Assembly (NCBI GenBank): GCA_015134315.1 | Contig: CP043973.1 | Location: 25,611 to 89,610, forward strand | Source of the DNA: Candidatus Stammera capleta | Lineage (GTDB): Bacteria > Pseudomonadota > Gammaproteobacteria > Enterobacterales > Enterobacteriaceae | Direction of reading: 5' to 3' | DNA: 64,000 nt | Shown here: positions 57,590 through 60,112 of the stretch, piece by piece | Position numbering within the stretch: the stretch's first letter is position 1 | Layout of the letters: each line of letters opens with the position of its first letter | Position numbers and translations under genes: made by a program | Notes under the pieces: model-generated | Databases searched by the model: none | What the model saw: the letters and a program-made list of their open reading frames with translations, nothing else | What the model was told of the DNA's origin: nothing

Positions 57590-60112
57590 TTAAATTACAT
57601 AATTTATAATTTTATTTTTTATATATATAATTTTTTTAATTTTTTTATTTATTATATATTTATTAATAATTTTTTTTTTATATATTTTTTTTTTTACTTT
57701 TTGTTCATTTAAGTTATATTTAATTTTTATTATATATTTTTTTTTACCATTAATTTGTATAATTAATTTTATTTTATTTTTATATAATATTTTTTTATTT
57801 CATTTGGGTCATTTAGCATTATCTATTGTATTTTTATTTTTAAGTTTTTTTCATATATAAAAACTTATATGTGGTGTAAATGGATATATTAATATTAATG
57901 TTGTATCTATACATATTTTATATAATTTAATATCTTCATTATTTAAAATTTTAAATTTATTAAATTTTTTTATAAATTTCATTATTTCTGATATAGCAAT
58001 ATTAAAATTATTATTTTTAATATTTTTATTTACTTTATATATTGTATTATTTAAATAAAATTTAATTTTTTTATTATATATATTATGTTTATTATCTATA
58101 ATTTTATTATTTTTAACTTTTATAAAATTAAGATATATTGTGTAAATTTTATTTAATAATCTATAACATCCTTTAATATTTTTAATATTCAATACTAAAT
58201 TTTTTTCTATAGGAGTTGAAAATATTATAAATAATCTTAATGAATCTGCTCCATATTTATTTATTATATAACTAGGTTTTATACCATTATTTTTTGATTT
58301 AGACATTTTTTTGTATCCATCAAATTTAACTGGTATTTTAGTATTTTTTTTAAAATAATATTTTTTATTTTTTGTTTTAACTAAATTTATATTTTTTTCA
58401 TTAATTCAAATTTTTTTTTTTTTATTAAAATAATAAAATGTTTTTGATAAAACCATACCCTGACATATTAATTTTTTAACAGGTTCTTTGTGTTTTATTA
58501 AACCTATATTATATAAGAATTTATGTATAAATCTTAAATATATTAAGTGCATAGTAGCATGTTCTATTCCACCTATATATGAGTCTATTGGTAATCAATA
58601 ATTAGCTTTTTGTTTATCAAATATATATTTATTATTATTAGTTGATGTAAATCTTATATGATATCATGATGATTCTAAAAATGTATCTAGTGTATCATTT
58701 TCTTTTATTAAACTAGTATTATTTACTTTAATATTTTTAAATTTACTATCTAATTTTAATAAATTAAATTTTTTTTTAAATTTATTATTTATTTTAGTAT
58801 TCAATTTAATAGGTAATTTATTATATTTTATTGGTATATTTAATTTATTTAATTTGATTATAGGTATCGGTGTACCTCAATAACGTTGTCTTGATATAAT
58901 TCAATCTTTTAATTTATAAATATTATATTTTTTATTTTTAATTTTTAATAATTTTATTATTATTTTTTTTGAATTTTTAATTGATATATTATTTAATAAA
59001 CCAGAATTAATTATTTTTTTATTATTTAATTTTGTTTTATTATTTTTATAAATATATTTTATTTTTAAATTATAATATTTAGCGAATTTATATTGTTTAT
59101 TATCATATCCTGGAATTAATGGTAATGAATCATAATTATAAGAATTATTAGTAAGATTAGTTATTATTATTGGTAATTTTTCTTTAGTTATAGGATTAAT
59201 AGCTATAAAATTAGTTTTTATCAAAAAATATTCTTTATATTTTTTAATATTTTTATTATTATTAAATATATTCTCAATTTTTTTATTAATATTTTCTATA
59301 TTTTTAATTAATTTATTATTTATAGAAATACATATATAGGTAATAGCAGTAATTAATCTAATATTTTTTATAAATATTTTAATATTTTTATTATAATTTT
59401 TAATTTTAAATTTTATTTTATAACATTTTATTTTTCCTATTCAATTATTTTGCATATTTTTTACTTTTTTAGGTCAATATTTTAATTTTTTAATATCTTC
59501 TAATAATATTTTTGAATATTTAGTTATTTTTATGAATCATTGATTAATATATTTAAATTTTATTTTATTATTACATCTTCAACATTTATTGTTTATTGTT
59601 TGTTCATTAGCTAATACAGTTTTATCATATGGACATCAATTAACTATATCTTTTTTTTTATATAACATATTTTTTTCAAATAATTTTATAAATAATCATT
59701 GGTTTCATTTATAAAATTTTGATTTACAGGTTATTATTTCTTTATCTCAATCATAACTTATACCTATTCTTTTTAATTCTTTTTTCATATTATTTATATT
59801 TTTAATTGTTCATTCATTAGGTGATAAATTATTATCTATAGCTGCGTTTTCAGCTGGTAATCCAAATGCATCTCAACCTATTGGATGTAATACATTTTTA
59901 TTATTTAATCTATAATATCTTGATAATATATCTCCTATAGTATAATTTCTTACATGTCCTATGTGGATATTACCTGATGGATAAGGCATCATAGATAAAC
60001 AATAATATTTTTTTTTTTTATTATTTATTTTTGATTTAAAAATTTTATTTTTATATCAATAATTTTGTATTTTTTTTTCAATTTTATTATGGTTATATTT
60101 TTTATTTTTCAT
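57590..60112 (-). CDS. leuS: Leucine--tRNA ligase
   Basis: [60 protein letters not shown] and KMSKSKNNG. The 840-codon frame was checked with no TAA/TAG. Confidence 0.97.

Follow-up and report, generated by a model that had tools for sequence, protein, structure and literature searches.

Does a leucyl-tRNA synthetase (LeuRS) that has kept its editing domain still edit? The question is raised by leuS in a 64,000-nucleotide stretch of DNA from Candidatus Stammera capleta (assembly GCA_015134315.1, contig CP043973.1, forward-strand positions 25,611 to 89,610). This whole stretch is called the window below, and gene coordinates refer to it unless another contig is named. leuS occupies 57590 to 60112 on the minus strand and, when TGA is read as Trp (genetic code 4), encodes an 840-residue protein with 19 TGA-encoded Trp residues. 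Its CP1 "editing" domain spans residues 226 to 402 (58907 to 59437, minus strand); the fold is kept and the pocket residues are replaced. A sequence-only reading of the window had proposed that the enzyme retains CP1 but has lost the motifs needed for editing and is probably editing deficient, and every sequence test that we ran supported this proposal. We consider it highly probable that leuS encodes a single, essential LeuRS with intact aminoacylation, in which CP1 would serve as a scaffold for structure and tRNA handling, its hydrolytic pocket having been dismantled.

The three pocket motifs of CP1 are replaced

In Escherichia coli LeuRS, the D345A substitution and substitutions of T247 and T248 abolish editing, and the GTG turn cradles the 3' adenosine. 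Asp345 aids catalysis by anchoring the alpha-NH3+ group of the substrate, analogous to IleRS D342, and Thr252 holds cognate Leu-tRNA-Leu in an unproductive position, preventing its hydrolysis (PMC9023258). What has become of these residues in Stammera? We mapped them in two ways, by HMMER alignment to the PDB chains of E. coli LeuRS and by a MAFFT alignment of 121 sequences (E. coli K-12 LeuS from NC_000913 and 120 further LeuRSs), and the two alignments agreed.

The Thr-rich peptide TTRPDT is represented by IKNIRL (residues 248 to 253; 59354 to 59371, minus strand), so that T247 has become Ile, T248 Lys, R249 Asn, P250 Ile, D251 Arg and T252 Leu. The GTG turn (G331-T332-G333) reads N326-Y327-D328 (59129 to 59137, minus strand) in both alignments. 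At the position of the essential Asp345 stands Gln340, encoded by CAA (59093 to 59095, minus strand). Both replacements that the sequence-only reading had placed, at the Thr-rich peptide and at Asp345, were reproduced exactly by script, and the loss of GTG that it had reported was likewise borne out. None of the three hallmarks of an editing-competent CP1 was present.

Could the motifs have been placed elsewhere in the insert? The D345 column is bounded by a conserved Pro-Gly on one side and by a conserved Tyr-x-Phe-Ala on the other, and hence no gap shift can bring an Asp into it. A search of the CP1 insert for a Thr-Thr pair found none. D342 of E. coli does remain Asp here (Asp337), but neither it nor D328 is conserved, and across the multiple alignment no conserved Thr-rich or Asp residues appeared elsewhere in the insert. 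We therefore rejected relocation of the motifs.

The loss is shared throughout the clade

We set 39 LeuRSs of the Stammera clade against 82 others, which came mostly from reduced symbionts. Asp345 was kept in none of the clade proteins but in 76 of the 82 others. Its place is taken by His in 17 clade members, Gln in 11, Tyr in 9, and Phe and Leu in one each. T248 was never kept in the clade, G331 had become Asn in 38 of 39, and M254 and F281, which are conserved elsewhere, were never retained. Since the same state recurs in 39 clade proteins against Asp in 76 of 82 others, chance or sequencing noise does not explain it. The nearest LeuRS relatives come from genomes of 212 to 325 kb, followed by those of Buchnera and other symbionts of the Enterobacterales. 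One close relative, P0004, has a LeuRS entry of only 582 residues (82% identity over 68% of the query); a frameshift, a truncated gene or a fault in the assembly might explain it.

How might the loss have arisen? Among 26 sampled genomes of the genus, none kept Asp345. The codons at this position were CAT (11 genomes), CAA (8), TAT (5), TTT (1) and TTA (1). They connect to one another by single steps, and CAT is one step from GAT. On grounds of parsimony, without a rooted tree, this pattern suggests one ancestral Asp-to-His change followed by drift. Since drifting residues now stand in for Asp345, for the Thr-rich peptide and for the GTG turn alike, this enzyme most likely lacks post-transfer editing.

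Three genomes, G002, G003 and G033, bear on the age of the loss. Each lacks in-frame TGA in five or six aminoacyl-tRNA synthetase genes, whereas other members have about 75 such codons. A basal Stammera lineage that uses genetic code 11 has been published (PMC13695967), and these three genomes probably belong to it. All three already lack LeuRS Asp345. If they do represent the code-11 lineage, the LeuRS loss would thus predate the reassignment of UGA. The loci of these three genomes include L020, L032, L052, L054, L058, L106, L107 and L112. A further genome, G031, carries only a few in-frame TGA codons in its synthetase genes.

The synthetic core is intact

The leuS frame is open from 60112 to 57590 as a single reading frame under code 4, and translation under code 11 splits the region into short fragments. 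Each of the 19 TGA codons coincides with a Trp position, and many of these columns are invariant Trp in a 75-sequence alignment. Residues 4 to 840 align with residues 23 to 879 of the E. coli LeuRS chain (E=1e-203; phmmer, PDB sequences), collinear over the full length of the characterized enzyme, with the anticodon-binding and C-terminal domains included. Pfam searches recovered the class I core (PF00133, E=4.8e-54), the editing domain (PF13603) and the anticodon-binding domain (PF08264). The aminoacylation signatures HIGH (residues 50 to 53; 59954 to 59965, minus strand) and KMSKS (residues 602 to 606; 58295 to 58309, minus strand) are both intact. With these signatures, full-length similarity and CP1 inserted in the catalytic core, the protein is a bacterial-type class Ia LeuRS. 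A tblastn search of the whole 264-kb genome with E. coli LeuS found this one leuS locus. At the hinges of CP1, residues W224, I225, D403, W404, S407, R408, Q409, W412 and G413 are invariant in the 75 sequences.

CP1 is retained and appears constrained

If the pocket is gone, is CP1 itself decaying? The domain matched PF13603 over residues 223 to 387 with 96.6 bits against a cut-off of 25. It is 177 residues long (G226 to K402) against 194 in E. coli (G225 to R418), with deletions around residues 289 and 352 to 393. The sequence-only reading had described CP1 as aligning without gaps to the E. coli enzyme; this holds for the motif blocks but not for the domain as a whole. An AlphaFold2 model, built on the 75-sequence alignment, which includes editing-competent homologues, reached a mean pLDDT (predicted local distance difference test score) of 88.3 and a pTM (predicted template modelling score) of 0.86. 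Within CP1, pLDDT was 74 to 93 per 10-residue block and mostly above 80, except in the loop at 281 to 290 (59). The best Foldseek matches of the model were E. coli LeuRS-tRNA complexes, with a TM score of 0.84.

Pairwise identity within the clade was 0.49 for CP1 and 0.66 for the rest of the protein, a ratio of 0.73 in a domain of which Lys, Asn, Ile, Tyr and Phe make up 73%. The same ratio was obtained in lineages whose motifs are intact. Strongly relaxed constraint across the whole of CP1 is thus unsupported by this test, which composition bias weakens. We regard the proposal that CP1 is still under constraint, unlike freely drifting sequence, as moderately supported by these comparisons. 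CP1 is also shorter in the clade, at 149 to 181 residues against 183 to 198 elsewhere.

Two kinds of non-editing LeuRS can be told apart here. The Stammera protein is not of the CP1-less Mycoplasma mobile type, because its CP1 is present and confidently modelled. It does resemble the degenerate-CP1 type known from mammalian mitochondria: CP1 is present with deletions, and all three motifs are replaced.

Several points weigh against a scaffold that has ceased to edit. For this LeuRS, loss of activity is deduced from residues alone. The AlphaFold2 model, shaped by an alignment with editing-competent homologues, gives weak independent evidence for the CP1 fold, and the skewed composition of the domain inflates identity ratios. 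Finally, an Asp (Asp337) is present at the position that corresponds to E. coli D342. This last point loses its force because the column is Asn in 65 of the 82 other LeuRSs, and Asp337 is therefore not a conserved catalytic residue.

Other explanations for the altered domain

Perhaps CP1 still edits with non-canonical residues, with Asp337 or Asp328 anchoring the amino group, for example? Both do lie near the former pocket, and the retained, confidently modelled domain is about as constrained relative to the enzyme body as it is in editing-competent lineages. However, both residues vary within the clade: E. coli position 333 (D328 here) is Lys in 18 members, Asn in 11 and Asp in 6, and E. coli position 342 (D337 here) is Asn in 18, Tyr in 9, Ile in 4 and Asp in 2. 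Pocket positions vary freely among close relatives, as expected of drift and not of a new active site, and three separate motifs were lost together. We consider such editing very improbable. A second thought was that CP1 had been recruited to a new role beyond the support of aminoacylation, such as binding RNA or protein; CP1 of yeast mitochondrial LeuRS, after all, has a role in splicing. Fixed residues specific to the clade (N326, in 97%; T318; T321; K227, K400 and K402) would fit recruitment, as would the retention of the domain, probably since the proposed Paleocene origin of the symbiosis (bioRxiv 10.1101/2023.12.12.571295). But these residues are mostly Lys, Asn, Ile and Thr, as expected under AT pressure, CP1 is shrinking in the clade, and the gene neighborhood of leuS suggests neither a partner nor a target. 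A new role thus seems a shade less probable still than non-canonical editing.

Is the loss real at all? Misalignment, a wrong genetic code, an assembly error or a decaying pseudogene could each mimic it; leuS does fall into fragments under code 11, and the entry from the close relative P0004 is short. We rejected this explanation, to which we give almost no credence. The 840-codon frame is open under code 4 with its 19 TGA codons at Trp positions, each motif has anchors in the alignment on either side, the state is shared by 39 independent assemblies, and the genome holds no other LeuRS that could stand in for this one. We conclude that a LeuRS with an intact synthetic core and a dismantled editing pocket is the most probable reading of leuS.

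A proposed route to a LeuRS that probably no longer edits

On this preferred reading, the enzyme would charge tRNA-Leu yet fail to deacylate Nva-, Ile- or Met-tRNA-Leu. It has lost the amino-group anchor (Asp345), the peptide that lines and gates the pocket (T247, T248 and T252) and the GTG turn. The loss was probably a single ancient event in the common ancestor of the genus, for which parsimony favors a change of GAT to CAT (Asp to His). The pocket residues may then have drifted neutrally, and the CP1 core and hinges may have stayed under purifying selection, with CP1 supporting enzyme architecture and aminoacylation.

Why might such a loss be tolerated? Norvaline is regarded as the physiological target of LeuRS editing in work cited by one of our sources (PMC10500172). 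It would arise as a by-product of the leucine pathway, which is absent from this genome: a search of the genome for homologues of LeuA and LeuB found none. This absence of a norvaline source plausibly helped the loss to be tolerated. Selection may also be weak in a symbiont genome of 264 kb. No backup deacylase was evident, as a search of the genome found no DTD and no free-standing YbaK; the only YbaK-type domain is in ProRS.

Proofreading loss is enzyme specific

The sequence-only reading had gone further, linking LeuRS to a truncated ThrRS and proposing a general relaxation of translational proofreading. We compared the remaining editing synthetases of this genome by alignment with the corresponding E. 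coli enzymes and surveyed up to 26 genomes of the genus (19 for IleRS). The link to ThrRS was sound. thrS (46528 to 47748, minus strand) encodes 406 residues, starts at about E. coli residue 243 and lacks the N-terminal TGS and N2 editing region; the sole tRNA_SAD domain of the genome is in AlaRS. ThrRS is short (400 to 434 residues) in 24 of the 26 genomes. G006 and G034 have ThrRS open frames of about 600 residues, with N-terminal parts that lack the His/Cys motif of the editing site. In G018, the best ThrRS frame was 434 residues, and a frame of about 600 was not reproduced.

PheRS-beta tells a similar story. pheT (42142 to 44439, minus strand) encodes 765 residues and keeps neither of the editing residues H265 and E334: H265 is Ile, E334 is Ser or Leu depending on the alignment, and the positions of E. 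coli T354-D-A356 read YNS. The PheRS-beta editing site is lost in all 26 genomes. ValRS has TTKPEN here, with the GTG turn lost and D286 changed to His. Asp286 is kept in 11 of the 26 genomes and the full GTG turn only in G002 and G003, which have both features; G033 has not kept the two, and G031 has a GSG variant.

IleRS and AlaRS behave differently. IleRS of this genome keeps WTTTPWT, GTG, H333 and D342, and its motifs (TTT, GTG, H333 and D342) are kept in 19 of 19 genomes. AlaRS keeps HxxxH and CxxxH here, and the motifs are kept in 24 of 26 genomes. The other two, G018 and G012, are the most divergent of the genus; their AlaRS frames (L176 and L177, respectively) are 574 to 575 residues long, with the match ending at about query residue 554, and the editing and C-terminal domains seem to be missing. 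In ProRS, the INS domain is present, Lys279 is apparently kept and His369 is Tyr, which leaves its editing state ambiguous.

Might the AT bias of these genomes explain everything? IleRS in the same genomes keeps its TTT, GTG and Asp. AT pressure alone, therefore, does not erase motifs of Thr, Gly and Asp, and we rejected it as the whole explanation. Judged by these motifs, proofreading loss is enzyme specific: LeuRS, PheRS-beta and ThrRS have lost their sites, ValRS is decaying, and IleRS and AlaRS have kept theirs. The relaxation is thus real, but the sequence-only reading, in calling it general, overstated its reach.

Genome context and neighbors of leuS

The genome comprises 264 kb, has about 16 to 17% GC on both contigs and uses code 4; GC content within the window is 10 to 23%. 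The chromosome contig (258 kb) has an exact terminal overlap of 55 bp (positions 1 to 55 and 258229 to 258283 of the contig) and is therefore circular. The gene proS spans the junction and is split between the two contig ends as laid out. The second contig, of 5,612 bases, has a match to GH28 polygalacturonase at its positions 4825 to 5610 (minus strand) with two TGA Trp codons, and looks like a small plasmid with the host-beneficial pectinase typical of Stammera. Candidatus Stammera capleta is an extracellular foregut symbiont of tortoise beetles that reads UGA as Trp, carries its pectinase on a plasmid and has about 255 genes at about 15% GC (PMC10540940; bioRxiv 10.1101/2023.12.12.571295). 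The features of this genome fit that organism, since it is gammaproteobacterial, reads UGA as Trp, is low in GC and has a plasmid-borne pectinase.

leuS is surrounded by recB, recD, a 234-codon reading frame, an RNase E/G-family gene and a gene for an rluC-like pseudouridine synthase. Immediately downstream of leuS, the 234-codon frame (56877 to 57581, minus strand) matched no Pfam family at E<=1e-5. This place is taken by lptE and holA in E. coli, and the frame may be what is left of either gene after strong divergence. Upstream, the RNase E/G-family gene (60336 to 61811, minus strand) encodes 491 residues with S1, catalytic and thioredoxin-like domains. The protein has no extended scaffold at its C terminus, as would be expected of RNase G or of a minimal RNase E. 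Elsewhere in the window, a tRNA-Leu gene lies at 935 to 1017.

Discussion

How does the Stammera enzyme compare with other LeuRSs? It shares domain order, 36% full-length identity and fold with E. coli LeuRS (PDB 4AQ7, 4ARC and 5OMW) but differs from it in all three pocket motifs and in a CP1 that is 17 residues shorter. A closer parallel is mammalian mitochondrial LeuRS, whose degenerate, editing-defunct CP1 was reportedly described by Lue and Kelley in 2005 and by Ye et al. in 2015. The human mitochondrial enzyme keeps the conserved Asp, which Stammera LeuRS has lost. In the mammalian mitochondrial enzyme, CP1 has suffered deletions, catalytic residues and editing are lost, CP1 is thought to be kept for its part in structure and aminoacylation, and the lack of norvaline has been proposed as the reason for the loss (PMC10500172). 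Retention of CP1 with peptide deletions, loss of catalytic residues and the norvaline rationale are all shared by Stammera LeuRS, and CP1 here is most likely kept, by analogy, for enzyme architecture and aminoacylation. The difference is that ours is the enzyme of a bacterial symbiont, not an organelle, and is known from its sequence.

The sequence-only reading had pointed to Mycoplasma as precedent. The comparison is apt, although the mitochondrial enzyme and the survey of host-restricted bacteria discussed below are closer. Naturally editing-deficient Mycoplasma LeuRS was reportedly described by Li et al. in PNAS in 2011, and M. mobile LeuRS lacks CP1 altogether. The 637-residue M. mobile chain (3ZIU) matches the Stammera protein only in pieces (TMq 0.61), and Stammera, unlike M. 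mobile, keeps the CP1 scaffold. LeuRS, PheRS and ThrRS of Mycoplasma are naturally defective in editing (PMC7373986, PMC10057733), and Stammera resembles Mycoplasma in its reduced genome, UGA read as Trp and accompanying PheRS and ThrRS defects. One of these two reviews notes that the loss of three or more editing activities is not known from any Mycoplasma. Judged by sequence, at least four appear to be gone from the Stammera genome (those of LeuRS, PheRS, ThrRS and ValRS).

[quoted passage not shown] In that survey (Melnikov et al. 2018, PNAS 115:E11505; via PMC7373986, PMC10057733 and PMC11020763), to the extent that these papers report it, several editing sites are mutated or deleted, LeuRS included, with synthetic sites intact, just as in Stammera. 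The decay of LeuRS therefore fits a pattern already known from host-restricted bacteria and mitochondria; it is a sound but expected, ordinary result. What our analysis works out is the pattern of lost and kept sites across one genus, and this alone extends somewhat past the literature consulted. The Stammera comparative-genomics preprint (bioRxiv 10.1101/2023.12.12.571295) contains neither "aminoacyl" nor "tRNA synthetase", and a literature search combining Stammera with editing terms had no Stammera paper among its top-ranked matches.

Does this pattern have an order? The published tree places the code-11 lineage at the base of Stammera (PMC13695967). We lean, if only slightly, towards a phylogenetically ordered series in which LeuRS, PheRS-beta and ThrRS editing went before UGA was reassigned, ValRS is decaying lineage by lineage, the AlaRS editing domain has been lost in two divergent genomes, and IleRS is strictly selected. 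Four or five of seven editing sites would then be dead in a free-standing extracellular bacterium, if sequence states reflect activity. Such a series, if true, would go past the limit of "no more than two" recorded for Mycoplasma and would single out editing by IleRS and AlaRS as the part of aminoacylation quality control that cannot be reduced further.

Stammera adds a well-resolved case to the host-restricted bacteria that have given up aminoacyl-tRNA proofreading, and one in which the loss is selective and not general. For annotation, it means that a protein matching the Pfam LeuRS editing domain need not be able to edit. Because Stammera is extracellular, is open to manipulation by way of the host's egg caplets and is represented by many genomes, it could be used to test which editing activities a cell needs, and whether editing-dead CP1 domains persist by supporting aminoacylation.

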